64,000 bases of DNA from Escherichia coli 042 (lineage in GTDB: Bacteria; Pseudomonadota; Gammaproteobacteria; Enterobacterales; Enterobacteriaceae). Shown piece after piece: positions 6,431-21,868 of this stretch (positions are counted from its first letter, which is position 1; the number at the start of each line of letters is the position of its first letter). The notes beneath the pieces are model-generated. The model did not search any database, was not told the origin of the DNA, and saw only the letters and a program-made list of their open reading frames with translations. A program made the position numbers and the translations under genes. Where the stretch lies: assembly GCF_000027125.1 (NCBI RefSeq), contig NC_017626.1; one strand, written 5' to 3'.

Positions 6431-7252
6431 ATGCGTACAACCATTGCTGTAGTGTTGGGTGCAATTAGTTTGACGTCTGCTTTTGTGTTTGCAGATAAAC
6501 CAGACGTTGCCAAATCGGCAAACGATGAGGTCAGCACCCTGTTTTTTGGTCATGATGATCGTGTGCCAGTGAATGACACGACCCAATCACCGTGGGATGC
6601 GGTTGGCCAACTGGAAACGGCCAGCGGCAATTTATGTACGGCGACGCTGATTGCACCCAATCTGGCATTAACGGCAGGACACTGTTTATTGACGCCGCCA
6701 AAGGGTAAAGCCGATAAAGCGGTAGCGCTGCGTTTCGTGTCAAATAAAGGTCTTTGGCGCTATGAGATCCACGACATAGAAGGCCGCGTTGATCCGACAC
6801 TGGGAAAGCGGTTAAAAGCAGATGGGGATGGCTGGATTGTACCTCCCGCAGCTGCGCCCTGGGATTTCGGTTTGATTGTGCTACGTAATCCCCCTTCTGG
6901 CATTACACCGTTGCCGTTATTTGAGGGAGATAAAGCCGCGCTTACCGCCGCATTAAAAGAGGCAGGTCGTAAAGTGACTCAGGCGGGATACCCTGAAGAT
7001 CATCTCGATACGTTGTACAGTCATCAAAACTGTGAAGTGACTGGCTGGGCGCAAACGTCGGTGATGTCGCATCAGTGCGATACCTTGCCGGGTGACAGCG
7101 GTTCGCCTCTGATGTTGCATACCGATGACGGCTGGCAATTAATTGGGGTGCAAAGTTCGGCTCCTGCCGCGAAAGATCGCTGGCGCGCCGATAACCGGGC
7201 CATTTCTGTTACCGGTTTTCGCGACAGGCTGGATCAACTGTCGCAAAAATAA
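6431..7252 (+). CDS. ydgD: secreted trypsin-like serine protease
   Basis: 273 aa, signal peptide, TAGHC and GDSGSPL catalytic motifs. Confidence 0.88.
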
Positions 7253-7257
7253 TGTTC

Positions 7258-7283
7258 AAACGCTGCCCGACAGCGCGGGCAGC
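7258..7283. terminator. hairpin between convergent ydgD and mdtI (approximate coordinates)
   Basis: cgctgcccg-acag-cgggcagcg inverted repeat. Confidence 0.5.
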
Positions 7284-7290
7284 GTGTTCA

Positions 7291-7620
7291 TCAGGCAAGT
7301 TTCACCATGATCATTCCAGCCAACAGCAAGACCAGGCCAATCCAGCCTTTACGATTTAACCGTTGACCAAACAAGATCCAACCTGCGGCTAACGTGGCGG
7401 CAATACCAAACCCGCCCCACAATGCATAAGCGACAGACAAGTCGATCCCTTTAACGGCCTGAGAAAGCGCACTAAAGGCAGCCAGCACCGCCGACAGGGA
7501 GAGCAAGCCAAATATTTTGCGACGAAAGCCGTCAGAAAATTTCAAAAAGACGTTAGCAACGATTTCCAGCACGATTGCCAATGCCAGCCAGGCGGCGTGA
7601 ACCCATTCAAACTGCGCCAT
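7291..7620 (-). CDS. mdtI: SMR-family spermidine exporter subunit
   Basis: 109 aa small multidrug resistance fold; K-12 synteny. Confidence 0.9.
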
Positions 7621-7972
7621 GGTTCACCTCCAGTTCAGGTTTACGCGCTTTACGGGTACCTGATTTGATCAATACAATCCCGGCCACCAGGGTGGTTAAC
7701 CCGGCAATTTTCATCAGCGATAAACTTTCGTCGAATAACAAAACGCTAAACAAGGTAATAAATAAAATACCGATACCTTCCCACAGCGCATAAGCCACGC
7801 CTAAGGCGATTTTTTTAACGGCGAAAGAGAGAAATATATACGACAGAGAAATCATCACCAGCATTAAAATAAAGCCGCCATTTCCCTCACTGACGCTCGC
7901 CCATTTCATGGACAGCGTACCGGTAATTTCTGTAGCAATAGCCAGGCCTAATAAAATCCAATAAATATACAT
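7607..7972 (-). CDS. mdtJ: SMR-family spermidine exporter subunit
   Basis: 121 aa; overlaps mdtI start as in K-12. Confidence 0.9.
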
Positions 7973-8383
7973 TGTCCTTCTCCTGCAAGAGAATTATTTT
8001 AATTTTCGCTTAATTCAGCGAAACCAAAGTAAAGTGGTCAAGCCCCGCGCTTAGCGCAAGCTTTGGCAGAAGAAAGGACTAAAGCGCGTTGCGCCAGTGC
8101 TGCTCACCTACGAGCAAGATAGTGGATGAGGTACGAAGATGGGTAAATGTAGAAAATAACGTCCTGAACAAATTGTCCATAATATTACAATTATCCGCAG
8201 TGTTGCTTCTCGTCATCGCGGATGATAATTGTCCTCGGTAGTTGAACACGCCTGATTTGTATCATAGCTTAAGAATTAACTCAAAATATTTTCACTTCTT
8301 TACCTGAGCGGTTTGATTTTCGTTATGATGACGGAGCGAAAAAGACATTATTATTAGCAAAGGAAGAAAAAACGGGGACAAGC

Positions 8384-8530
8384 ATGGCAAAGCCGATCAT
8401 CACGCTCAATGGCCTAAAAATCGTCATTATGTTGGGAATGCTGGTCATTATTCTCTGCGGTATCCGTTTTGCCGCCGAGATCATCGTGCCGTTTATTCTC
8501 GCATTATTTATTGCTGTTATATATAACTAA
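8384..8530 (+). pseudogene. tqsA: tqsA 5' fragment (codons 1–45) ending at the island junction
   Basis: Encodes [45 protein letters not shown] then IYN-stop from island DNA; remainder of tqsA resumes at 19546. Confidence 0.8.
8512..8520. repeat. attL core (TGCTGTTAT)
   Basis: Identical 9-mer at 19546..19554; lies at tqsA codons 44–46. Confidence 0.7.
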
Positions 8531-8591
8531 TTTCACTTAACGCATTGATTTAATTAAATGATTTGCACTACAAAAAGTGCCATAAATCGCA

Positions 8592-8650
8592 AAATGACTA
8601 CACCAGTGACTACACCGTTCGGTGCACTGTATGAAACAACGTGGAACAAA
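8592..8650. promoter_or_regulatory. arm-type repeat block (GACTACACC x2), homologous to block near attR
   Basis: atGACTACACCagtGACTACACCg plus shared flanking motifs, matching 19391..19460. Confidence 0.5.
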
Positions 8651-8929
8651 TAGACACAAGAAATATACAGGCGGGTCATCTTTCCAGGGGGAAGCGCGCT
8701 AATTCATGAGGGGCGTTAATGTTGATATGGGGATCCCCATAACGGGGCTACCGGATTTTTTTTCCGGTTAACTGTTAATCAGGCTGGTGGGCTTTACCTG
8801 TTTTGTAGGAGTGGTCATTATGACCATTCAGACAATGACCTTAATCAGAACTTTTCGCTAAAAAATGACGTTGGTCACGTCGTCCGGAAAGCACAAAATC
8901 CCGTCAATTTTTAATTAACGGTTAAACCG

Positions 8930-8990
8930 TCTTTTGTCACGGCGTGTCACTGGTTGTCACTCTCCGTCACGGTATGTCGCTACTCGTTAA
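8930..8990. repeat. helically phased TGTCAC/GTCAC array (about 5 copies)
   Basis: tgtcacggcgtgtcactggttgtcactctccgtcacggtatgtcgc, ~10–11 bp spacing; at 3' end of the leftmost island gene. Confidence 0.45.
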
Positions 8991-9268
8991 CGCCGTAACC
9001 GCTCCGGCTTCTTCCAGTGGTACGTAATTTTCTCCGTTTCCCGATACAGTGCCACGCGGCGATTGTAGGCCAGCATTTCAAGAACGCGGATCCGTATGTT
9101 GCGCATATCCACATCATTAAGCTGGATACCATCACGGCGCATCACCTCAGCAACCACACGCGCGTAATTTTCGGCGGTCACGCTGTCCGGCTGCGTGGCC
9201 TGTTCGTCATGCTGCTGGCTGATTCCGGTAACGCGGCGGATTAATCCCAGTAGTTCGGCTTCTGTCAT
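8987..9268 (-). CDS. hypothetical protein (93 aa)
   Basis: ORF 8987..9466 trimmed to Met MTEAELLG; upstream part of the track ORF is read-through of the cos repeat. Confidence 0.45.
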   Translation of the reverse strand: MTEAELLGLIRRVTGISQQHDEQATQPDSVTAENYARVVAEVMRRDGIQLNDVDMRNIRIRVLEMLAYNRRVALYRETEKITYHWKKPERLRR

Positions 9269-9301
9269 TGTGCCCCCATCGCTCTGATAGTCTGGTGTCG
9301 T

Positions 9302-9365
9302 CGGGTCCTTCCTGGAATTATGGCCCGTTACGGGGCGGCGACCTCGCGCGTTTTCACTATTTATG
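9302..9365 (+). other. lambda-type cos site, copy A (cosN GGGCGGCGACCT at 9333..9344)
   Basis: cgggtccttcc...gttacg|GGGCGGCGACCT|cgcgcgttttcactatttatgaaaattttt matches remembered lambda cosQ–cosN–left-end sequence. Confidence 0.75.
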
Positions 9366-9547
9366 AAAATTTTTCGGGATCCATGTCCGGTTTCTCTGCA
9401 AGTTAACCATATGAAAAATATAAAAACATGCTTTCCATGAACCGGACATGCGCAAAAAACAGACACTAAAACCGGACATCGAACCAGTTAACCGAAAGTG
9501 TGCACAAATCACATGCATTGCTGCGAGTGATTAACAAGTTATCGGCT

Positions 9548-9982
9548 TTACTGTTCTGTATCGGCTGATTGCTCCATGCTGGCACGGCGAACGCTTATGG
9601 CATGACGCCACCCAGCCAGAAAGCCAGCCATTTTATTTCGTGCCTTGCTCACATCTTCCGGTGAATAGCCGTAAATCTGCAAACCTTCATCAAATCGATG
9701 TTCTGTTTCTTCACTGGAGTACTCGTCACGCTCAGATGAAAGCAGCCTGGCAAACATAATTTTTTCCAGCGCACTGGTTTCTACGTGATATCTGATGGTC
9801 TCAAGACGGCTTTTACCTGAAGACCAAAGCAATGTATGCCCGATGTGATAACCGCCAGACTTTCCGCGATCCGCATTAAGATACGGCATCCCCTGTTTGG
9901 TCCATGCGCGAATAGTGGTTCTGTTAACCTTGAAATGTTCAGCTATTTCCTGCTGACTTACAAAACAAGCTTTATCAATCAT
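9548..9982 (-). CDS. Nu1-like small terminase homolog (N-terminal HTH); possible packaging-redirecting protein
   Basis: 144 aa; VSQQEIAEHFKVNRTTIRAWTKQGMP resembles lambda Nu1 VNKKQLADIFGASIRTIQNWQEQGMP; flanked by cos copies. Confidence 0.7.
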   Translation of the reverse strand: MIDKACFVSQQEIAEHFKVNRTTIRAWTKQGMPYLNADRGKSGGYHIGHTLLWSSGKSRLETIRYHVETSALEKIMFARLLSSERDEYSSEETEHRFDEGLQIYGYSPEDVSKARNKMAGFLAGWRHAISVRRASMEQSADTEQ

Positions 9983-10050
9983 AATGTTACCTTAACTGCA
10001 TGGTTAAATATTAATCAAGTGGTGGTGGTGTCACCTTCACGGAAAAACGT

Positions 10051-10114
10051 CATAAATAGCGAAAACCCGCGAGGTCGCCGCCCCGTAACGGGCCATAATT
10101 CCAGGAAGGACCCG
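10051..10114 (-). other. lambda-type cos site, copy B (cosN at 10072..10083), inverted relative to copy A
   Basis: Reverse complement is cgggtccttcctggaattatggcccgttacgGGGCGGCGACCTcgcgggttttcgctatttatg; ~90 bp upstream of the Nu1-like start. Confidence 0.75.
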
Positions 10115-10117
10115 TAA

Positions 10118-10138
10118 AAAAGCCGGATTTCTCCGGCC
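10118..10138 (-). terminator. rho-independent terminator after the 137-aa gene
   Basis: Minus strand gccggagaaatccggc followed by T-run; same hairpin recurs near 12390 and 12759. Confidence 0.6.
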
Positions 10139-10143
10139 TTGTC

Positions 10144-10557
10144 TCAGATGTTTTTCAGTATGCGATCGATGTCGCCGTCATCGCCCTGGTTTCTGCCATC
10201 GTATGCCATGCCAGCTGATACGGCTTGCGGGCTGTGCATGTCCATAAAGTTTTCAAAGGCTGCGGTAAGTTCCGGCGCAACCTTCGGACGTTCCTGCTCT
10301 ATGGTCATGCTAAGGATGCTTTTAGCCGTACCAACATCGATACAAGGCACGTTTGCCATTGCACGCAACAGCGGCTGATAGTCTTTATGCTCATGAAGCG
10401 CCATAATCGCATCAGCGCGCGGCTTGTCCTGCTCTTCCAGTTTGTTTAGTTGATGTACGGCCTCATAGGTTGATAAACCTCTGTCAGCCATTGCCCGCGC
10501 TTCGACTTTAAATTTACTCGCCAGCGGTAGCGTCATGATGCTTTCATTCGTTGCCAT
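10144..10557 (-). CDS. hypothetical protein (137 aa), last gene of capsid operon
   Basis: ORF; tightly packed after the gpD-like gene. Confidence 0.5.
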   Translation of the reverse strand: MATNESIMTLPLASKFKVEARAMADRGLSTYEAVHQLNKLEEQDKPRADAIMALHEHKDYQPLLRAMANVPCIDVGTAKSILSMTIEQERPKVAPELTAAFENFMDMHSPQAVSAGMAYDGRNQGDDGDIDRILKNI

Positions 10558-10569
10558 CGTTCCCCCTGC

Positions 10570-10905
10570 TTATCGGGCCAGCGGCTGAACGGATACGCCG
10601 GAACCCGCAAAGGCGGCGCATTTTTTCGCATCGGTGTCGACGCTCTCAGGCCAGTTAACGGCGGCAATATTGAATATCCCCGTCTTGTAACACTGTGCTG
10701 ATTTCTGCTTTGACGTGTCCACAGGGTACGAGGTCAGATAAACAGCCTTGCCAGATTCCTGACCATCCCACGGCTTAAACTCGCCATTGTCTGCCAGCAT
10801 CAGCGGGGTAAATTCCTGAATAACGCCAGCATCAGCGGCAAAATGTACCAACGTCGTGGATACCTGCTGACTGCCTGCAAATAACTCAATGTATGGAGTG
10901 TCCAT
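10570..10905 (-). CDS. head decoration protein, lambda gpD-like
   Basis: 111 aa; TPLMLADNGEFKPWDG...KTGIFNIAAVNWPESVDTDAKKCAAFAGSGVSVQ parallels lambda gpD (110 aa). Confidence 0.72.
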   Translation of the reverse strand: MDTPYIELFAGSQQVSTTLVHFAADAGVIQEFTPLMLADNGEFKPWDGQESGKAVYLTSYPVDTSKQKSAQCYKTGIFNIAAVNWPESVDTDAKKCAAFAGSGVSVQPLAR

Positions 10906-10917
10906 AGAATCCCCCCG

Positions 10918-11973
10918 TTAACCAATTTTGACGGTAACAAATTTGCGAATATCTGCCGGTACCGGCTGCGGTGCACTGTGTGTCTGCACGTACTCAATCG
11001 CCGGATCGCCGTCCTCAATCCAGTTTTTCGGGTAAAACATGTTTTGTGTTGCGCCCGTTCTTACCGCTTCCTGATCCATTATCGCACCATAGGCCACCAG
11101 CCCTTTATTGTTGGTGTTACCCAGGACCAGCAAATCAGGCTCAAGGAAATATTTTTCGGTACCATCGCTGTCAGTGTATTTGCCGGAATAGACGATAAGG
11201 GCCAGATCACCAAGATAGCCTTTAAAGCTCACCACTTCGCCCAGGTTTTTACAGGCCAGTTCGGCGGCGGATTCTGAACCACGGGAAAGATCGTACAGCT
11301 CACGGAATTTTTTAAAGCTGCGTAATGTGCGCCATACCTCAGCGCCCATAATCATGACGTTTGCGGGGCAACCAGCCTGATCAGCATAAAGCTCGATGTC
11401 ATAGATTGGGTCGTGCATGTCTTTATCCTGCTCGGACCATTTTTTACCCTTGGCCTGCTCTATGATGCAGTTTTCCGGTATTTTCCAGTCGATTTCATAG
11501 CGTTCTATGCCTTCGCCCTCAATGATGTTTTTTCCGGTCGTTACCGCATTCACCGCCAGCCATTCCACGCGTGCCTTAATGGCGTTTATCTGGCGGCGCA
11601 TGTTGCCAGTAATCAGGCGCATACGGCGATAGGTAGGGTCGTTAAGCTGTGCCGGATCTTCTCCAGCCATGCGCATGATGGTTTTCGTTGGATCGATTTC
11701 GTGCTTTGGCTTCATGTAGCCAGGTTTGATTGTGCTGGTTTCGTACCCTTTATCGCGCTGAACCTGGCTACCCACCATAGGCGAACAAAACGCCGACATG
11801 GTGACTTCTTCAATGTCCAGGGTATCCAGCATGATGTTTTGCGTGCTGAATGTCGCCACGTTCGGGAAAAACAGCGTGGTAAACAGAGGGCTGAATTTAA
11901 AATCCGCAATATCCCCGCGATTCAGGTACATGAAAAGCTGGTTAGTGTTAAGTGCCGTTGCTTTGCCTGCCAT
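10918..11973 (-). CDS. major capsid protein, lambda gpE family
   Basis: 351 aa (lambda gpE is 341 aa); adjacent to gpD-like gene. Confidence 0.75.
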   Translation of the reverse strand: MAGKATALNTNQLFMYLNRGDIADFKFSPLFTTLFFPNVATFSTQNIMLDTLDIEEVTMSAFCSPMVGSQVQRDKGYETSTIKPGYMKPKHEIDPTKTIMRMAGEDPAQLNDPTYRRMRLITGNMRRQINAIKARVEWLAVNAVTTGKNIIEGEGIERYEIDWKIPENCIIEQAKGKKWSEQDKDMHDPIYDIELYADQAGCPANVMIMGAEVWRTLRSFKKFRELYDLSRGSESAAELACKNLGEVVSFKGYLGDLALIVYSGKYTDSDGTEKYFLEPDLLVLGNTNNKGLVAYGAIMDQEAVRTGATQNMFYPKNWIEDGDPAIEYVQTHSAPQPVPADIRKFVTVKIG

Positions 11974-12212
11974 TATTCACCCCCATAATTTTTATGCATC
12001 CCAAGCGCCGCAAGTAAATAAGAGCGTACAAGTGAACCTATCGACGGCTCCGGCGTCATCAGCGGATCCAGTCCAGCCGCAACGCCAGCTTCATAGTTTT
12101 TTTTGTGGCGCTGCTTGAGCACCTCCACGATTTCGGGGCTTATGTACACCGAAACACCGCCTTTTTTCTCTTCAGCCATAGTAAGAAATTCCTCTTCGAC
12201 TAAAAAAATCAT
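11973..12212 (-). CDS. hypothetical protein (79 aa, or 68 aa from internal Met), first gene of capsid operon
   Basis: ORF; stop overlaps capsid start (ATGA). Confidence 0.45.
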   Translation of the reverse strand: MIFLVEEEFLTMAEEKKGGVSVYISPEIVEVLKQRHKKNYEAGVAAGLDPLMTPEPSIGSLVRSYLLAALGMHKNYGGE

Positions 12213-12235
12213 AACTGGATGTTTATCCAGTTATG
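12208..12235. promoter_or_regulatory. 12-bp inverted repeat (tcataactggat-gttt-atccagttatga) overlapping capsid-operon start codon
   Basis: Perfect 12-bp arms with 4-bp spacer; AT-rich region with further palindrome ttgcattttatgcaa just upstream. Confidence 0.5.
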
Positions 12236-12344
12236 ATTATAATCAGAATTGCATTTTATGCAATGATATTGAGTTATGTTGCAAATTATGAAATGATTAT
12301 CCCGATCACGAACGCCAGTGCATCCAAAAACCTCATATGCAAAA

Positions 12345-12410
12345 GCCCGATAAGAACCCTCTGACCTTATCGGGCTTTTTTTGGGCGCAAAAAAGCCGGA
12401 TTGCTCCGGC
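12345..12410. terminator. tandem hairpins (bidirectional terminator region, approximate)
   Basis: gcccgataag...cttatcgggc + T7, then aaaaaagccggattgctccggc. Confidence 0.55.
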
Positions 12411-12430
12411 TATGTGTGCTGTGTGCTGGC

Positions 12431-12655
12431 TCAGTCTCTGATCTCTTTCAGAAATTCTATCAATGCATCTATCTGTTCAGGATTTACCGCCAGCATTTCA
12501 CCGGATAGAGCACATCTCACAAAACCATGCTGATCCTTTTCAATCAGTGCGCCCGTCTCCAGGAATGCGCGGTAATCATTGATGCTCATCGTCTCCATGT
12601 TGTCAGCATGGTATTTATCACGCTGTTTTAATATCTCATCAAATTTCATCGGCAT
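12431..12655 (-). CDS. hypothetical protein (74 aa)
   Basis: ORF followed by terminator hairpin. Confidence 0.45.
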   Translation of the reverse strand: MPMKFDEILKQRDKYHADNMETMSINDYRAFLETGALIEKDQHGFVRCALSGEMLAVNPEQIDALIEFLKEIRD

Positions 12656-12758
12656 TGTTTTTTTCCTCTGTTGTGTCTGTTTGTTTCAGATAGTAACTAT
12701 GCCTGACCGTGACGAAAACCCGGTAATGCGCCATACCGTTTCAACTGGTGCAAAAAAA

Positions 12759-12774
12759 GCCGGATTTCTCCGGC
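12759..12774 (-). terminator. rho-independent terminator after PerC-like gene
   Basis: aaaaaaagccggatttctccggc. Confidence 0.6.
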
Positions 12775-12781
12775 TGTTTGA

Positions 12782-13054
12782 TTAGCTGTCCTGGTAATTG
12801 CGCCATATTTCATCACCAGCACCATCTATACCCATTTCGGCATAAGTGCGATCGACTGCCTTTTTCAGGTCTCCGAAATTATCCGGCGGCTCCGGTGCCC
12901 TCTGTGCCTTCCTTGAACATTCCAGCCGTCGCATCGTGATGTGATGCCGTTCCTTGTCTGTCTCCACCAGCTGCATGACTTCACCCCATCGCGCCGCCGC
13001 CCTCCGGTAAAAGCCTTTCGCCTCCAGTTCCTCCGCTATGCGGTCATGTACCAT
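12782..13054 (-). CDS. PerC-family transcriptional regulator-like protein
   Basis: ORF 12782..13174 trimmed to Met MVHDRIAEELEAKGFYRRAAARWGEVM, which resembles the PerC/Pch motif LExxGxWRRAAxRW. Confidence 0.55.
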   Translation of the reverse strand: MVHDRIAEELEAKGFYRRAAARWGEVMQLVETDKERHHITMRRLECSRKAQRAPEPPDNFGDLKKAVDRTYAEMGIDGAGDEIWRNYQDS

Positions 13055-13064
13055 CGTCACCCCC

Positions 13065-13475
13065 TCAGAACGAAATATCATCACCGTAAGGGTCATCGCC
13101 TCCCGCTGGTGGCTGATTACCCTGTGTGCCTGTGGTTTTGCGTCTGTTCCCGCCTGGACGTGCCGCGCGGGCACTGATTACGCTGTCTGCGATAACCTGC
13201 CAGCCCTGCCGCGTTTCTCCGTTCTGTCCGGTCCACTGGCTTACCTGCATCGTGCCGGATACGCTGGCAACATCGCCTTTTTGATGTTTAGCCAGGAAGT
13301 CGGCCTGTTTGCCAAATGCGATGACCGATAACCATAACGTCGCCTGTCCGTCCTGTGCCTGGCTGCATGGCAAAGATACCGCCATACGCGCCAGCGTCAT
13401 CGGTGTGCCCTTGCTGGTCTGTTTTACCTGCGGGTCGTCCACCAGCCGCCCGTAAGCGGCTATCTGTGCCGTCAT
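13065..13475 (-). CDS. ssb: single-stranded DNA-binding protein
   Basis: 136 aa; OB-fold segments parallel E. coli SSB; Gly/Pro-rich tail ending DDPYGDDISF (compare DFDDDIPF). Confidence 0.8.
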   Translation of the reverse strand: MTAQIAAYGRLVDDPQVKQTSKGTPMTLARMAVSLPCSQAQDGQATLWLSVIAFGKQADFLAKHQKGDVASVSGTMQVSQWTGQNGETRQGWQVIADSVISARAARPGGNRRKTTGTQGNQPPAGGDDPYGDDISF

Positions 13476-13753
13476 AATTCCACCTCTCCGGTTTTAACGT
13501 TGATGGTTGTTACCTGTTCCGCTTCGGCAATCTCCCGTTCTGTCAGCGTGGCAAAGTTTGCCGCCGCCGTGGTCATGAATGCGCTTATCAGGTCGGGATG
13601 TTCCTTCGCGTATCCTTCCCGCGTGTGGCGGTCTATCGTTCTGATTGCCACCTTTAAGGTGTGCTCAGTCATGTCTAACGCTTTATATTTTGGCTCTGTT
13701 CTGTCTCTGCGTTTTTGGGTCATTTCTCGCAACCTCTCACTTTTTCGCCTCAC
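13472..13753 (-). CDS. hypothetical protein (93 aa)
   Basis: ORF overlapping ssb start by 4 nt; 5' end overlaps iteron region. Confidence 0.4.
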   Translation of the reverse strand: MRRKSERLREMTQKRRDRTEPKYKALDMTEHTLKVAIRTIDRHTREGYAKEHPDLISAFMTTAAANFATLTEREIAEAEQVTTINVKTGEVEL

Positions 13754-13925
13754 TTTTTCAAGCGTCTCACTTCGTCGCAGTTGGGATTTTCGGTTTTTCT
13801 ATGTGTGTGTTTCATAAGTATTTTTTTACCCCTCACTTTTGAGGATGTATACAGGTCGAAAAGTGAGGGAGAGCGGGCTAATTTTGGCCCTCTTTCTATC
13901 CCCCTCGCTTTTGCTCCTCACTTTT
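13733..13925. repeat. candidate replication origin: CCTCACTTTT iterons (about 6 direct, 1 inverted) with AT-rich spacer
   Basis: Iterons at about 13733, 13748, 13764, 13829, 13859 (inverted), 13901, 13916; directly 3' of the replication ATPase gene. Confidence 0.6.
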
Positions 13926-15324
13926 ATAGCGGCGCTACATCATCCCCATCGATACGAATAACCCCATCTTTTTCCAGCTTGTACAGCCAGCGCCGGAAGT
14001 TTTTCATTTCATACCCCAGCTTTTTCATGTCATCACGTAACAGCGGGATCGTGCACTTGTCGCCGTTCTGTGTGCGTGAACGGATGCACCCCCATAGCGC
14101 GGTATGGTTTTCCGTCTTGTTCCCTGCCTCCTCGATGCGCTCCAGTTCAACAGGAGGGCGCGGATCATCCACCACCACCAGCGACGTGATTAATTCACCG
14201 TCAGCGTCGGTAAAAAGCTCCACCACGCGTAAGTCATATGCGGCTTCTTTGAGTTCCTCCGCGTCCTTCATTTTGGTGCATGAGATAACCAGCGCTTCGC
14301 TTCCTGCGTCCTCCCTGCGTATCCGGTATTCAGCATCCAGCGAAGCACGAAATGCACTGGAACCGCGCGCGCCTTTCGTCTCATCCTTGCCGGAATGGTG
14401 AACCACCAGCACCGTGGCCCCTGTGCGTCGTTTCAGTTCGTCACAACCACGGATAAACGCCCCCATATCACGGGAATCATTTTCATCATTCCCACCAAAG
14501 CAACGCGCCAGCGTATCCAGAATAATCATGCGTACAGGTTTACCCGTTTCCCGCTCCACCTGACGGGCAGCGATAACCATTTCATCAACATCAAGCGGGG
14601 CAGCCGGAAAGATGGGGCGGTTTACCAGATACAGATTTTTCACCTGCTCATCGTGCACAACCTCCCAGGCTTTTACACGACGCGGAACACCTATACCGCC
14701 TTCACCAACCACATAGAGAACCGCACCATGTGCAACCCTGCGGCCTCCCCACTGGCGACCAGTGGCAACATGGCACGCCCACGATCCAGCAAGGAATGAT
14801 TTATAGGACCCGCTAGCCCCGTATATGCTGCATAGCGATACCGCCGGAATAATCCCCTTAACCACGTAATCCAGTTGCGTGTCGTATCCGGTAGATCCAA
14901 CGCTCATCGGTAGCGTGGTTTTTCGCTGGTGTTTTTTTTCTTCCGCCGGCTCTTTCCCGCGCACCCGTTCCAGGTATTCGCGCCAGTTCTCCCGCATATG
15001 GCTGTGCATCCCTTCGGGGTAATAATTCGCATCAGTTACACCCGCCGCCGCCAGCTTGTGCGCAATGGCATTAATATTTGATGGCCTGATGTGGCCTGCC
15101 TTGTACAGCCGGACACAATAGCGCCCCTCGTCGATGATTCTCAGGTCTGCCAGTTCATCCAGTTGATCATCAGCCAGCACAACGGGAGGCACATTATCGC
15201 CAGCCAGTCGCCCGTCCTGTTCCTGCCACTGTTTCGCATGTGCCCAGGCATCACTACCCGCAAAAATAATGACTTCGGTCATCTTGTCGTAAGGCTGTTT
15301 TTTTAAGTTCGGTGCGCTTTTCAT
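13924..15324 (-). CDS. replication protein, RecA-fold ATPase / helicase-like (primase-replicase candidate)
   Basis: 466 aa; Walker A GASGSYKS, Walker B MIILDTLARCFGG, VLVVHHSGK motif typical of phage/plasmid RepA or DnaB-like ATPases. Confidence 0.75.
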   Translation of the reverse strand: MKSAPNLKKQPYDKMTEVIIFAGSDAWAHAKQWQEQDGRLAGDNVPPVVLADDQLDELADLRIIDEGRYCVRLYKAGHIRPSNINAIAHKLAAAGVTDANYYPEGMHSHMRENWREYLERVRGKEPAEEKKHQRKTTLPMSVGSTGYDTQLDYVVKGIIPAVSLCSIYGASGSYKSFLAGSWACHVATGRQWGGRRVAHGAVLYVVGEGGIGVPRRVKAWEVVHDEQVKNLYLVNRPIFPAAPLDVDEMVIAARQVERETGKPVRMIILDTLARCFGGNDENDSRDMGAFIRGCDELKRRTGATVLVVHHSGKDETKGARGSSAFRASLDAEYRIRREDAGSEALVISCTKMKDAEELKEAAYDLRVVELFTDADGELITSLVVVDDPRPPVELERIEEAGNKTENHTALWGCIRSRTQNGDKCTIPLLRDDMKKLGYEMKNFRRWLYKLEKDGVIRIDGDDVAPL

Positions 15325-15620
15325 TTCTTGCCCCTGAATCCGTTAACCATGGTTTTCAGCTTCTGGATGTTTGCCCGTGCCCTGGCGTTGCTGGTGGGCA
15401 CGTTATGCGGCGCGGTCTGTACCAGAGAAAAATCACGCCGGAACTGATAAACAGGCATCACGCAATCATATTCGTAACCTTCACGGCGGTAGGTTACGCG
15501 CCGTTCTTCCACGTCCTTAATCATTACCGTGCCGCCGTACTGGTCGCGGTAAATATCACCGCGCGTAAATTTAGGGTGAGTGTTGCCACTGGCAGTTAAG
15601 CCAGAATATTTAAGTTTCAT
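15321..15620 (-). CDS. hypothetical protein (99 aa)
   Basis: ORF overlapping rep start by 4 nt. Confidence 0.45.
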   Translation of the reverse strand: MKLKYSGLTASGNTHPKFTRGDIYRDQYGGTVMIKDVEERRVTYRREGYEYDCVMPVYQFRRDFSLVQTAPHNVPTSNARARANIQKLKTMVNGFRGKK

Positions 15621-15625
15621 TATTT

Positions 15626-15859
15626 TTATTCTCCGGTGTGCTGTTCTTTATATCTGTCGTGCAATAGATCTATTTCTTGCAGTTCCATTATTACAGGCTC
15701 AAGAAGCGTTATTAATGCTGTGGCAATTCTTGATTTTTGTTTGTCGCGTTCATTGTCGCCAAGTGTTTCAAGCCATATGCGCAATATTTCCATCATGTTT
15801 TCACTGTGAGAAAGTGCAAGAAATGCGCGGTCTATTGTTTGGTGGTAAATATCACGCAT
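15626..15859 (-). CDS. hypothetical protein (77 aa)
   Basis: ORF in operon context. Confidence 0.4.
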   Translation of the reverse strand: MRDIYHQTIDRAFLALSHSENMMEILRIWLETLGDNERDKQKSRIATALITLLEPVIMELQEIDLLHDRYKEQHTGE

Positions 15860-16319
15860 GGCTTACATCCTCAGGAAATTTTCTTCTATAACGCGCCTCT
15901 GCCACATATTCCGCATAATCGGCGGCGATATTCAGTACATCAAGCCCCGTTGATTTATATTCTCTCGTGGAAAGTAAGAAAAAAGCCGCTCTAATAAGTT
16001 CTGGCATTGACGAAAGCGCATCAGCCGCATCATCAGGAACGCCGGAAAATTCCTGTTTCAGGGAATTAAAACGATCATCACGCATAACCCCCCCCCCATT
16101 TTCACAATCAGCAATCAGGATAGCTTTGGCCTCATTCAGCGCCGTATCAGCACTAAATTGCATGACAGCCAGTGAGTGAGGAACGAAAGCACCGGCATAT
16201 TCTGTTTCGCTGGTGGCGTGCTTATGTGCCCTGTCCGCGATAACAGAAATATCAATCAGCGCGTGCATCAGCGTTTTGATGGCTTCGGCGGCTGCGTCCG
16301 GTGTGGTTTTATTGTGCAT
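15852..16319 (-). CDS. hypothetical protein (155 aa) containing a G10 homopolymer
   Basis: ORF; codons GGG-GGG-GGG at 16088..16097. Confidence 0.45.
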   Translation of the reverse strand: MHNKTTPDAAAEAIKTLMHALIDISVIADRAHKHATSETEYAGAFVPHSLAVMQFSADTALNEAKAILIADCENGGGVMRDDRFNSLKQEFSGVPDDAADALSSMPELIRAAFFLLSTREYKSTGLDVLNIAADYAEYVAEARYRRKFPEDVSHA

Positions 16320-16521
16320 AAAGCATCCCCTGAATATTCGTGTTAATCATTCCGGCACGTTTTGTGATTTCCTGTAATGATTCCCTTGTGGCGACAATTG
16401 CTTCATCTGGTAAGTGGTAATTACACACCACGCGACCTTTATCCACATTGACCAGTAGCTGCCCTGTGAATTTCTCACGAAACTGAATGCGGTTAAGGTC
16501 AGTAAGTGACAGATTAATCAT
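16309..16521 (-). CDS. hypothetical protein (about 70 aa from internal Met MINLSL)
   Basis: ORF 16309..16563 starts at GTG; ATG at 16521 is the likelier start. Confidence 0.4.
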   Translation of the reverse strand: MINLSLTDLNRIQFREKFTGQLLVNVDKGRVVCNYHLPDEAIVATRESLQEITKRAGMINTNIQGMLYAQ

Positions 16522-16711
16522 GGCGCACCTCCTGACGAATACGGGCGGCAAATACAGCAACACAACCGGACGGGCAACGGTTACGCGCTTCGCGTTCCGT
16601 CCAGGCGGTTACGTGGATGATTTGAGATTCTCCGGCACTCAGTGCCAGAAAACGCCACACAAAGGCCGTTTGTGTGTGTACAAGGTGTGGTATATGATTT
16701 ACAGCAACCAT
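16514..16711 (-). CDS. hypothetical small protein (about 65 aa), first gene leftward of regulatory region
   Basis: ORF 16514..16786 trimmed to Met MVAVNH. Confidence 0.3.
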   Translation of the reverse strand: MVAVNHIPHLVHTQTAFVWRFLALSAGESQIIHVTAWTEREARNRCPSGCVAVFAARIRQEVRHD

Positions 16712-16803
16712 AACGGCTCCTAGTTTACGTTGTTGGTTAGAAGCCCTGCGAGTGGTAACGACACTTGCGGGGCTTTGTCTTTTCATCGATTACCTTGATA
16801 AAG

Positions 16804-16884
16804 GTGTCAGCCACTATATTAGTAACGGGTGTCAGCCACGTCAATAGTGTTTTTCCGTTTTCTTGTGTGTATACTGTCAGCCAC
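16804..16884. promoter_or_regulatory. divergent regulatory region with three direct repeats GTCAGCCAC
   Basis: Repeats at 16806..16814, 16831..16839, 16876..16884; tatact box and aggaaa RBS precede the plus-strand small gene. Confidence 0.6.
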
Positions 16885-16905
16885 CTAATAACGAGGAAAT
16901 CAGAT

Positions 16906-17085
16906 ATGGCAACAAAAGCAGTTAATGCAAAATCCAAAAAGCTTGAGGCTCGAGTACCACACGCAATAGCTGATGCTGTAGAAAATTTAAAGGAAGATGG
17001 CGAAAGTACAGGGCAATTTATCGTTTCGGCACTTGAAGGCGAGATCAAACGCCGCCAGCGCCGCAAGGCCAAAGAATCAGAATAA
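16906..17085 (+). CDS. small ribbon-helix-helix-like DNA-binding protein (59 aa), candidate island regulator
   Basis: KKLEARVPHAIADAVENLKEDGESTGQFIVSALEGEI resembles Arc/CopG RHH; transcribed divergently from the leftward gene block. Confidence 0.5.
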   Translation: MATKAVNAKSKKLEARVPHAIADAVENLKEDGESTGQFIVSALEGEIKRRQRRKAKESE

Positions 17086-17127
17086 TCACTATCAGCGCCG
17101 TGGTGTGAGGTATTACGGCGCATTGCT

Positions 17128-17316
17128 ATGCAGGACAACACAATGACCGATAAAGAATTGACCAAAACATTATCACCGGCACGGAAAAGACGGCGCAGAA
17201 AGATAGAGCATGAATCAGAAAGATTCGCACCATGTGCTTTTGCCCTTGAGCAATTCCTTAAAGAGTACAGGGAAAAGCGCTCATTGCAGGTATGGCAACG
17301 AACTGAACCAGACTGA
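17128..17316 (+). CDS. hypothetical basic small protein (62 aa)
   Basis: ORF downstream of RHH gene; Arg/Lys-rich. Confidence 0.35.
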   Translation: MQDNTMTDKELTKTLSPARKRRRRKIEHESERFAPCAFALEQFLKEYREKRSLQVWQRTEPD

Positions 17317-17394
17317 TTGCATTGCCCACCAGCCTGATAGCGGCTATCATCCCCGTGCTTATGTTTGGGATCACACACACAAACGGCGCAGCGG

Positions 17395-17430
17395 GTTATC
17401 TGTTCAGAAAGGCGGCTCCATTTCGGGGCC
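17395..17430 (+). terminator. candidate terminator of the plus-strand pair (approximate)
   Basis: ggcggctccatttcggggccgc followed by tttttta. Confidence 0.45.
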
Positions 17431-17585
17431 GCTTTTTTTATACCTGAAAAACCCCAATTTTGTTGTTTTTCAGTTTCACCAGGGCGAACGAATCCCCGCC
17501 CACGTTCTGGCGTATATTCAATCTTCATGGTTATAGCTCTGTGTTCAGATGATTGATGTGTGGCGGCTGCGTGCCGCCAGCGTGA

Positions 17586-17774
17586 TTAATGAACTGCCTT
17601 GCAGCTATCCTTCCAGGCCAGAACCTCGGATAAAGACCAGCCAACGGAACGACCGCCAAGTTTACGACGTGATGGGAATTGTCCGGCCTTTTCCAGGCGG
17701 TAGCGACACGTACGGCTAAGGCCGGTTAGTTTTTCGCATTCTTTTTCACGTATAAACCGATCAGTGCTTAACAC
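17586..17774 (-). CDS. alpA: AlpA-family phage transcriptional regulator / excisionase-like
   Basis: 62 aa; LTGLSRTCRYRLEKAGQFPSRRKLGGRSVGWSLSEVLAW matches AlpA HTH pattern. Confidence 0.8.
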   Translation of the reverse strand: MLSTDRFIREKECEKLTGLSRTCRYRLEKAGQFPSRRKLGGRSVGWSLSEVLAWKDSCKAVH

Positions 17775-18140
17775 TATTGCCCCCCCTTTCGTTTCTTAAA
17801 GAGTCATCAGGTGTCTTATTGTGTCGTATTGTTCCCGCTAGAGTGATGAATGGCAAATATTGAGGATGTATGATTTACAGAAAATGAAACAGTAAGAATA
17901 AAATCTTTTAAATTCATGTTAATACAAAGGCATAAAATATTGTTTCATGCCTTTTTTCTCGCTCTTTAAAGAGTGATTCGCTAGTGTATAAAAAACCAGT
18001 GACACATTAAAAATCAGCCACTTATAAATCTGTATGCTTTTTCGCCTCTTGTTCGTGGTTGTTCCACATTGTTGCTCATTGTTGCACGTTGTATCTGTTC
18101 GCATATACAGTATGCGCATACTGAAAAAACACGAAAAAAA

Positions 18141-19370
18141 TTATTTTCTTCTGGCTACTGGTAGCGTGGTTACGTTTTCATGTGTTCCCGCCAGTATCCC
18201 TAACCGCTCCGTCCACATATCCAGCGCATTGCGTTTAGCATCCAGATAACGGGAATGATTATAAACTCGCTGCATTCCTGGCATCTGGTGGCCTGTAAGC
18301 TGCTCCACGACATGCGGATCAACGCCTAAATCGTTCAGCATGGTTGTAAAGGTGCGCCGGATGTCATGCAGTGACCAGTGAGGATGATTAAGCCTCCTGT
18401 GCGCTAATCTTCCATACTGCGATACGCTGGCCTCCTGTTTCACTTCCCCCAGCAATAAGCCCGTGTGCCTGTTCTGCTCCACCAGCTGCGTGACGAACGG
18501 CAGGATCGCTTCCGGTATGGGCCGGAATATTGCGACCTTCGTTTTGCTGTGCTCCTTCGGAACGGTCCATAGCATTTCCGTAAAATCCCACTCCCCGATC
18601 TCCGATAACCTCAGTTCTACCGTTCTGGCTCCGAAGACAATCAGGAGGCGGATTAACGCGACGTAGTAAGGGGAGAATATTTTTTTGTCCAGTGCCTGCA
18701 ATAATTCGCCAAGTTCTTTGTTACTTAAGACACGTTCGCTTATATCCGGTTTTTTCCCAACGTCCGCCACGTTCAGATCGTCCAGAACGTTGCTGATTGC
18801 ATAGCGCCGCCTACGGCAGAACTTAAGCGCCTGTTTGCACGCCTGTAGCACGAATCCGGCAGTAACAGGCGTTCGCTTTGCCACCTGGTCAAAACAGGCC
18901 AGCCAGTGCCGTAGCTCGCATTTATCCAGCGGCATAGCACCAATCTGCTGTATTACGTGATTATTAAGTCGCCTTTTCAGGGCGATATAATCCACGCGGT
19001 TTTCCTTTACGTAATACTCAAGCCAGTAGGTGAGCGCATCGCCAACCGTTACCGGCTTTAACGCTTCCTGTACGGTGTAATTAAGCTCATGACGTGGATT
19101 TTTCCCCTCTGCCAGCCATGCGCGACACTGGGCGGCTTTTTCCCTGGCTGATTTCAGGCTCAGATCAGGATAACTTCCCAGCTTAATGCGTTCGGGTCGT
19201 GTCTCCCTTCCCGTTCCGGCCCTGTATGTGAAATACCAGGTCAATTTCCCTGATGTTAAATATTTCACGCTCAGGTTTCCGCCATCACTATAAAACGTGT
19301 TTTTCTCCGCTGGCTTACCATGAAGTTTCCTTAGCAAGGTATCGCTCAGTTTGTTCATTGCTCTGCTCAC
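18141..19370 (-). CDS. int: tyrosine site-specific integrase (P4-like, N-terminal arm-binding domain)
   Basis: 409 aa; C-terminal HDIRRT...GHQ...VYNHSRY catalytic motifs; adjacent to attR. Confidence 0.9.
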   Translation of the reverse strand: MSRAMNKLSDTLLRKLHGKPAEKNTFYSDGGNLSVKYLTSGKLTWYFTYRAGTGRETRPERIKLGSYPDLSLKSAREKAAQCRAWLAEGKNPRHELNYTVQEALKPVTVGDALTYWLEYYVKENRVDYIALKRRLNNHVIQQIGAMPLDKCELRHWLACFDQVAKRTPVTAGFVLQACKQALKFCRRRRYAISNVLDDLNVADVGKKPDISERVLSNKELGELLQALDKKIFSPYYVALIRLLIVFGARTVELRLSEIGEWDFTEMLWTVPKEHSKTKVAIFRPIPEAILPFVTQLVEQNRHTGLLLGEVKQEASVSQYGRLAHRRLNHPHWSLHDIRRTFTTMLNDLGVDPHVVEQLTGHQMPGMQRVYNHSRYLDAKRNALDMWTERLGILAGTHENVTTLPVARRK

Positions 19371-19390
19371 GTTTTACCCCCTCTTTACGA

Positions 19391-19460
19391 AAAAGTGACT
19401 ACACCAGTGACTACACCGATCGTTGCACAAAGGGCTACAACGTGAAACAAGCTGGAACAA
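19391..19460. promoter_or_regulatory. arm-type repeat block (GACTACACC x2) between int start and attR
   Basis: gtGACTACACCagtGACTACACCg at 19397..19417, homologous to 8592..8650. Confidence 0.5.
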
Positions 19461-19545
19461 GGAAAATCACAAATCTGTTGATAATCAAAAACATAATGCA
19501 CAGCCTGAAACATTATGAAACAGCAAAAAACACCAAATGATAAAA

Positions 19546-19554
19546 TGCTGTTAT
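19546..19554. repeat. attR core (TGCTGTTAT)
   Basis: Identical to 8512..8520; in-frame stops TGA TAA immediately upstream. Confidence 0.7.
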
Positions 19555-20452
19555 TCTTAACCCGCTGGTGCAACACATGGTCCGCTGGCGAGTGCCGCGT
19601 GTACTGGCGGTGTCGATTTTGATGACCATCATCGTGATGGCGATGGTGTTGCTGTTAGCTTATCTGGGTTCCGCGCTCAACGAGTTGACGCGGACGTTAC
19701 CGCAATATCGCAACTCTATTATGACGCCGCTGCAAGCGATTGAACCGTTGTTGCAACGCGTAGGGATTGATGTCTCAGTTGACCAACTGGCGCATTACAT
19801 TGATCCGAACGCGGCGATGACGTTGCTCACCAACTTATTGACGCAGTTATCTAATGCCATGTCATCAATATTTTTATTGCTGCTGACGGTGCTGTTTATG
19901 CTGCTCGAAGTGCCACAATTGCCCGGAAAATTTCAGCAAATGATGGCGCGTCCGGTTGAAGGGATGGCGGCGATTCAGCGTGCGATTGACAGTGTTTCTC
20001 ATTATCTGGTGCTGAAAACAGCCATCAGCATCATCACCGGCCTGGTCGCCTGGGCGATGCTCGCCGCACTCGATGTTCGCTTCGCTTTTGTCTGGGGATT
20101 GCTGGCCTTTGCGCTTAATTACATCCCTAATATTGGTTCAGTTCTCGCAGCAATTCCCCCTATCGCTCAGGTACTGGTGTTTAATGGCTTCTACGAAGCG
20201 TTGTTGGTGCTGGCGGGATATCTGCTGATTAATCTGGTCTTCGGCAATATTCTGGAGCCGCGCATCATGGGACGTGGGCTGGGGCTTTCGACATTGGTGG
20301 TATTTTTGTCGTTGATTTTTTGGGGATGGTTGTTAGGACCGGTGGGTATGCTGCTTTCCGTGCCGTTGACAATTATTGTCAAAATTGCGCTTGAACAAAC
20401 AGCGGGAGGTCAAAGCATCGCCGTTCTGTTAAGCGATCTCAATAAAGAGTGA
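19546..20452 (+). pseudogene. tqsA: tqsA 3' portion (codons 44–344), separated from its start and promoter by the island
   Basis: In-frame continuation [14 protein letters not shown]...; track ORF 19568..20452 begins at an internal GTG. Confidence 0.8.
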
Positions 20453-20476
20453 CGGCCTCCGCAGAGGCCGTCAGGG

Positions 20477-21868
<1,392 letters not shown>

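Follow-up and report, generated by a model that had tools for sequence, protein, structure and literature searches.

A phage satellite of the EcCI042 type in tqsA of Escherichia coli 042: disruption of the gene as a probable side effect of site choice

When a mobile element settles inside a transporter gene, is the disruption a regulatory device, an advantage in itself, or simply the price of where the element integrates? The question is raised by tqsA, the gene for a proposed exporter of autoinducer-2 (AI-2), in a stretch of 64,000 nucleotides from Escherichia coli 042 (contig NC_017626.1 of assembly GCF_000027125.1), hereafter the window. There, the gene order ydgD, mdtI, mdtJ, tqsA, pntB, pntA matches that of K-12, and tqsA is split by an island. 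The original prediction, made from the letters alone, held that this island likely inactivates or truncates the transporter and that its excision might work as a reversible switch. The inserted DNA is an EcCI042-type Gram-negative phage-inducible chromosomal island (GN-PICI), i.e., a phage satellite; the reading that we favour, and consider probable, is that it occupies its own attachment (att) site in tqsA and disrupts the gene as a tolerated side effect, not as a switch that serves the host.

The two halves of tqsA and the island between them

The insertion cuts tqsA at codons 44-46 and leaves two pieces. The 5′ stub (8384..8530, plus strand), of 48 amino acids, aligns with positions 1-48 of NF008930, the TqsA model (E 9e-21). 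The tqsA-derived DNA on this side stops at 8520, within codon 46, and from this junction it follows, as had been predicted, that the stub is composed of 45 TqsA residues and three others that draw on island bases: 45 whole native codons are followed by ATA (Ile), TAT (Tyr) and AAC (Asn), and then by TAA. At the protein level, residues 46 (Ile) and 48 (Asn) of the stub coincide with native TqsA. The 3′ part (19547..20452, plus strand), which lacks the native promoter and start, comprises codons 44-344; it matches NF008930 over positions 44-344 (E 7e-178) and the rebuilt TqsA at 100% in tblastn. Its 301 codons lie, as also anticipated, behind two in-frame stops, TGA at 19538-40 and TAA at 19541-43. 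The frame is thus rebuilt at neither junction, with a stop two codons past the junction at attL and this TGA and TAA ahead of attR, and an N-terminus supplied by the island to the 3′ part, which was considered, is ruled out by the same two stops.

If membership of the TqsA family is taken as a full-length match in one frame above the curated NF008930 cut-off of 318 bits (NF008930 / PF01594), neither piece qualifies: the stub scores 74.8 bits, and the 591 bits of the 3′ part extend over positions 44-344 only. The TqsA domain is disrupted and the ends of the element do not restore it, which is the situation described for regulated gene integrity (Mageeney 2020). In other island-bearing complete genomes, both pieces are marked by RefSeq as incomplete pseudogene fragments.

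The island is bounded by an exact 9-bp direct repeat, the core TGCTGTTAT, found at attL (8512..8520) and at attR (19546..19554), and together with one core copy it measures 11,034 bp. When the left flank, one core copy and the right flank are joined in silico, they yield an open reading frame (ORF) of 1,035 nt encoding full-length TqsA (344 amino acids), which differs from the K-12 gene at 15 nucleotides and in one residue (L108I). Precise excision would therefore repair tqsA, as the original prediction had it, and both int and alpA, the integrase and AlpA genes of the island, are intact. The split is not due to chance, because the halves join into an intact ORF, int adjoins attR, and the junctions recur in 245-246 genomes, as described below. 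That a mobile island splits tqsA was thus borne out at every position, for the ORF, the NF008930 matches and the 9-bp repeat alike. A second copy of tqsA was also sought, and tblastn of the rebuilt TqsA across the 64-kb window matched the two halves only.

What kind of element is it? Its size lies within the range of about 8-15 kb given for GN-PICIs, and its specific core, read on the opposite strand, is the published ATAACAGCA (Fillol-Salom 2018). The genes int, alpA and the replication gene are co-directional, all on the minus strand, as are almost all the genes of the island. Capsid, decoration, scaffold-like and redirecting phage packaging (Rpp) proteins were recognized in it, with no tail genes, lysis genes or complete packaging motor, and it carries two exact lambda cosN 12-mers besides the Rpp homologue. 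The PHROG scans, which covered 20 island ORFs, gave no match to tail, lysis, portal or large-terminase (TerL) families, and a prophage was rejected on these grounds. Likewise, the TerL, small-terminase (TerS), HNH, portal, protease, capsid and connector families of capsid-forming PICIs (cf-PICIs) were unmatched in the same scans, which rejects that identity for the island of the window. The term lysogen, used at the outset for the strain, is consequently inexact for a PICI satellite that is not a prophage, and satellite-bearing strain is apt. The gene set of Rpp-type PICIs, including two cos sites and a 144-residue RppA, has been described for EcCICFT073 (PMC6092414, PMC6739421, PMC10111431).

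Much of this is already in print. Table S1 of Fillol-Salom 2018 (ISME J) lists EcCI042 and EcCIK1516 with the core ATAACAGCA and tqsA as att gene, EcCI042 being placed in E. coli 042 at FN554766.1 1832521-1843554, with 11 kb and perC as accessory gene (PMC6092414). These coordinates span 11,034 bp, the length of the present island plus one core copy; perC is found in both, and the att gene and the core, read on the opposite strand, are the same. In turn, tqsA is among the 19 new candidates for regulated gene integrity in the TIGER survey, a listing that rests on repeated integrations that disrupt a domain and are made by a tight clade of integrases (Mageeney 2020; PMC7192596), and among the core genes disrupted by integration in Bobay 2013. 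Since the att site, the core and the switch hypothesis have all been published, the finding is already known and adds no new biology. No paper in the literature searched names tqsA together with a PICI in the body of its text or describes a phenotype. The practical value lies in the reminder that tqsA is a pseudogene in island-bearing strains.

Integrase specificity, recurrence and decay

How often, and by which elements, is this site used? In a collection of 5,426 complete E. coli genomes, the same attL junction is present in 245, the same attR junction in 246, and the uninterrupted attB in 5,169. The position is used recurrently by a tight integrase clade, which is the kind of recurrence looked for in regulated gene integrity: the islands at the tqsA core have differing bodies and lie in different tqsA alleles, and their integrases are 99% identical. 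Two satellite architectures occur there, an 11-kb Rpp/cos type (the present window and O18:H1 strain CFSAN067215) and a 15-kb capsid-forming type (O26:H11 11368, PCN033, an O157:H16 strain, Res13, and WP7-S18-ESBL-09). In the index of the assembly collection, 766 blocks contain the exact integrase sequence, which, among the matches listed, lies beside pntB in 8 of 8 places, with different replication modules behind it; the site is therefore tied to the integrase. None of the complete genomes carries the whole island together with these flanks, the best match covering 86%. Separately, positions 7000-21000 of the window are 100% identical, over 14,001 bases, to JADDSX010000001.1 of the draft assembly GCA_015160475.1.

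The cf-PICIs found in tqsA (O26:H11 11368, PCN033 and others) have the attR junction of the present island, and their int-alpA end is nearly identical to its own. They differ in their size, of about 15 kb, and in having their own TerL, TerS, HNH, portal, HK97 protease, capsid and connector genes, a packaging and capsid set of which nothing was matched in the present island, which relies on Rpp and cos instead. They also leave a tqsA stub of 54 codons, compared with 48 here.

A second set of relatives resembles the present island in its body and differs in its target. EcCICFT073 and EcCIRM12579, which represent the model RppA-type PICI and are located at ycfD(roxA)-phoQ, agree with it in gene order and likewise carry lambda E/D-like capsid genes, an Rpp protein and a pair of cos sites, and the ycfD-phoQ island of O157:H7/O55:H7 has a body about 98% identical in DNA to that of the present one. 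However, their core, given in Table S1 as GGACATATTT (PMC6092414) and recovered independently here through the O157:H7 comparison, is intergenic, and no gene is disrupted. The present integrase (18141-19370), which is 99% identical to that of another tqsA-borne island, shows 92% identity to the ycfD-phoQ type (12780-14009 of the compared locus). Of the 32 residue differences, 17 fall in residues 1-58, the arm-binding domain, and none after residue 293, and the first 123 nt of int are only 70% identical between the two types.

The arm-type repeats co-vary with this N-terminus, being GTGACTACACC at tqsA and TTAACTACACC at ycfD-phoQ. In the present island they lie in tandem within two conserved blocks, one in the left arm (8591..8666, with two copies of GTGACTACACC) and its direct-repeat partner in the right arm (19392..19467), 76% identical to each other, which are likely the arm-binding sites of the integrase. 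Modest changes in the integrase thus accompany the move from an intergenic to an intragenic site, which argues that the host gene would be targeted for the sequence it contains and not for its function. The pair formed by the tqsA and ycfD-phoQ integrases also constitutes a compact natural case of att-site retargeting.

Regarding the later history of these insertions, decay has begun in some genomes. In O157:H16 strain Res13-Lact-PEA12-26, int is frameshifted (15754-16982 of the compared locus), and in CP026840.1 the 3′ fragment of tqsA is frameshifted (1921-2824 of the compared locus; two gaps and four internal stops). With one island-bearing genome having a dead int and another a frameshifted 3′ fragment, the loss of tqsA can become permanent. 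The conservation of the 3′ fragment was also considered as evidence of selection and discarded, as the differences among strains are ordinary allelic variation that predates the insertion.

Side effect, switch, knockout or truncated transporter

The course of events that we favour would begin with recombination, by a P4-like tyrosine integrase, between attP and the 9-bp core TGCTGTTAT that lies in codons 44-46 of tqsA. This attP carries no replacement sequence, unlike those of integrases that target the 3′ ends of genes or tRNA genes, and therefore a 48-codon stub is left on the tqsA promoter and a 301-codon remainder without promoter or start. Precise excision mediated by Int and AlpA would rebuild an intact tqsA, but it would belong to the satellite's own life cycle, induced by a helper phage, as it does in the relatives that have been studied. 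In EcCICFT073, excision, replication and packaging follow helper-phage induction (PMC6092414). We infer that the island exerts no regulation on tqsA.

What remains of TqsA in such a cell depends on the 3′ piece, for which the original prediction proposed expression from an internal start, giving a protein without its first transmembrane segment. The two candidate starts are where they had been placed, GTG 19568 being codon 51 and ATG 19577 codon 54, and nothing in the analysis supports expression from them. A strict sigma-70 promoter scan found nothing facing the 3′ fragment, and a lenient scan returned two weak matches against the 2.3 expected per 450 nt, which is chance level. Predicted Shine-Dalgarno pairing is +1.5 kcal/mol for the GTG and -2.8 for the ATG, the native start reaching -5.7 and int -12.4, and int itself is transcribed away from the 3′ fragment.

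The structural consequences can be read from the cryo-electron microscopy structure of TqsA (PDB 7NB6; PMC9475539). In it, the main contact on the cytoplasmic side is built from H1 (T7-F29), to which each of the five protomers contributes, and the H1-H1 interactions are described as “vital” to the pentamer; H2 (A31-W57) lies horizontally, embedded in the membrane, and both termini are cytoplasmic, H1 and H2 not spanning the membrane (PMC9475539). The insertion cuts H2 mid-helix, and a protein begun at residue 51 or 54 would have neither H1 nor almost any of H2; the missing N-terminus is not the classical first transmembrane segment that had been proposed. Consequently, of the two outcomes first envisaged, inactivation stands as the probable one, and a functional truncated TqsA from the 3′ piece is unlikely. 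The tqsA allele is most likely null, in that its function would be lost and its 3′ piece would not be expressed.

Several observations nevertheless weigh against the tolerated and inert disruption that we favour. In 12 of the 13 island-bearing loci sampled, neither stops nor frameshifts interrupt the 3′ fragment, and such undamaged fragments fit a recent insertion but also selection that keeps the gene restorable. By PCR, EcCICFT073 has been seen to excise and circularise spontaneously (PMC6092414), and rare tqsA+ revertants are therefore plausible, a related PICI being able to excise without a helper. Moreover, the island ends in TGaTAAAAT (19538-19546), an extended -10-like motif that faces the 3′ fragment, so that low-level transcription of the latter is possible. 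The ycfD-phoQ-type island shares this conserved motif, which there points towards roxA.

These observations bring in the other readings of the locus. According to one of them, this would be a true case of regulated gene integrity: under some condition, the island would excise and the cell survive, AI-2 export would resume, and the alternation between the on and off states would itself be selected. The listing of tqsA by the TIGER survey (PMC7192596), a core repeat that permits scarless repair, the intact int and alpA, the state of most 3′ fragments and the spontaneous excision just mentioned all speak for it. It would also have precedents: the skin element in sigK, phi10403S in comK and the prophages in mlrA and hlb likewise interrupt a gene that can be repaired by excision. 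In those established cases, however, excision is tied to a programme of the host and the cell survives, whereas the tqsA element is a helper-dependent satellite. Induction of EcCICFT073 needs the helper phage and ends in packaging, that is, helper-induced excision would take place in cells on their way to lysis, and a switch at the service of the host becomes less credible. PICIs are, in addition, reported to have no plasmid state (PMC6092414), and an excised copy would therefore presumably be lost unless it reintegrated. Table S1 places most of the remaining att sites of E. coli PICIs between genes (PMC6092414), where the target of the 92%-identical integrase also lies, which suggests that the choice of site is not about the host gene. 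Furthermore, in some genomes the integrase is dead or the 3′ fragment has decayed, this analysis turned up no regulatory connection to quorum sensing, and the three E. coli paralogues of TqsA, YhhT, YdiK and PerM (PMC9475539), may buffer its loss. Altogether, the repair predicted in silico is retained, and a switch regulated for the benefit of the host is rather unlikely.

It could also be that the loss of TqsA is advantageous in itself, to the host or to the satellite, through biofilm, motility or intracellular AI-2, all of which are reported to rise, together with lsr expression, upon tqsA deletion (Herzberg 2006, as cited in PMC9475539). The insertion occurs in about 4.5% of complete genomes and in varied backgrounds (O26:H11, O103, O18:H1, O157:H16 and the pig isolate PCN033), and two different satellite architectures have come to the tqsA site. 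Yet tqsA is intact in 95% of genomes, and spread by transduction explains the distribution without any benefit of the knockout, for which reason we regard this explanation as quite unlikely. Whatever its cause, the deletion phenotype and the carriage of a satellite in tqsA by roughly one complete E. coli genome in 22 imply that island-bearing strains, including O26:H11 and O103 Shiga-toxin strains, may differ in quorum sensing from their island-free relatives.

The remaining readings concern a TqsA that is altered instead of lost. Translation of the 3′ portion from GTG 19568 or ATG 19577 into a transporter with at least partial activity would find 294 or 291 uninterrupted codons, a 291-aa product that some gene callers predict there, and the -10-like motif 22-31 nt upstream of both starts; besides, with cytoplasmic termini and non-crossing H1 and H2, removal of these helices need not invert the topology. 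All the same, the lack of a consensus promoter, the chance level of the lenient matches, the weak Shine-Dalgarno pairing, the divergent transcription of the neighbouring int, the loss of the “vital” H1 contacts and of nearly all H2, and the RefSeq call of a pseudogene make this very improbable. Equally hard to believe is a variant in which TGaTAAAAT would be a conserved outward promoter that reads the host gene past attR, so that the insertion would remodel TqsA and not simply knock it out; if so, a TqsA without its first 50-53 residues and with residual or altered activity would be expected. The motif could equally be part of the core-binding site of the integrase.

Other genes and sites of the island

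The remaining contents of the island are described from attR towards attL, which is the direction in which almost all of its genes are read. The tyrosine integrase (18141..19370, minus strand; 409 aa) is P4-like, has an arm-binding domain and represents the tqsA-specific allele (phrog_1, E 1e-71; PF13356 and PF00589). Overlapping its start on the opposite strand, within the conserved att arm, a 60-aa ORF (19358-19540, plus strand; the RefSeq hypothetical protein WP_001332680.1) ends 7 nt ahead of the 3′ part of tqsA; it matches no PHROG family and is probably spurious. Next comes the AlpA-type regulator or excisionase (17586..17774, minus strand; 62 aa; phrog_2790, E 2.5e-17), whose equivalent beside an identical integrase matches PF05930 (Phage_AlpA). 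An Icd-like region (16737..17528, minus strand), apparently a remnant, has no PHROG match and is a RefSeq pseudogene in homologous regions. The only clear plus-strand gene of the island, for a small protein of the YlcI/YnfO family (16906..17085; NF041551, E 5e-16; phrog_949), lies within these limits. A DUF4222 protein (15321..15620, minus strand) is recognized from the annotation of related islands and from family scans.

The replication module consists of a RepA-type replicative helicase (13924..15324, minus strand; phrog_2850, E 1e-266, among helicase/primase families; PF13481 AAA_25) and a single-stranded DNA-binding protein, ssb (13065..13475, minus strand; phrog_44, E 1e-39; PF00436). 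Just downstream of repA, three 17-nt iterons (TTTTnCnCCTCACTTTT) with a spacing of 83-85 nt (13741..13925) mark the probable origin; the replication origins of GN-PICIs lie downstream of pri (PMC6092414). The accessory gene encodes a PerC-family transcriptional activator (12782..13054, minus strand; phrog_994, among transcriptional-activator families; PF06069). A scan of the whole window with Rfam gave no known RNA families.

The morphogenetic genes, all on the minus strand, comprise those for a lambda E-like major capsid protein (10918..11973; phrog_29, E 1.5e-107; PF03864 Phage_cap_E), a lambda D-like head decoration protein (10570..10905; phrog_49, E 1.5e-27; PF02924 on an identical locus) and a 137-aa protein that resembles the C-terminal end of a head maturation protease/scaffold (10144..10557; phrog_1999, E 1e-65; the C-terminal stretch of phrog_53, E 6e-9). 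Close to attL, a small conserved ORF of 93 aa (8987..9268, minus strand) matches phrog_1561, as residues 67-159 of a longer ORF, and is annotated as a hypothetical protein in related islands.

Between these, the Rpp gene (9548..9982, minus strand) encodes 144 aa that match RppC (PDB 6HLK; phmmer, E 4.5e-31) and, at the N-terminus, TerS (phrog_57). In GN-PICIs, Rpp proteins act on the TerS of the helper phage, which they redirect. It is bracketed by a 78-nt inverted repeat whose arms, 91% complementary, each contain the exact lambda cosN 12-mer GGGCGGCGACCT: one cos copy is found at 9302..9379 on the plus strand, with cosN at 9333-9344, and the other at 10037..10114 on the minus strand, with cosN at 10072-10083. 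The same inverted cos layout is seen in the O157:H7 and O18:H1 islands, and it corresponds to the published cos1 and cos2 of EcCICFT073.

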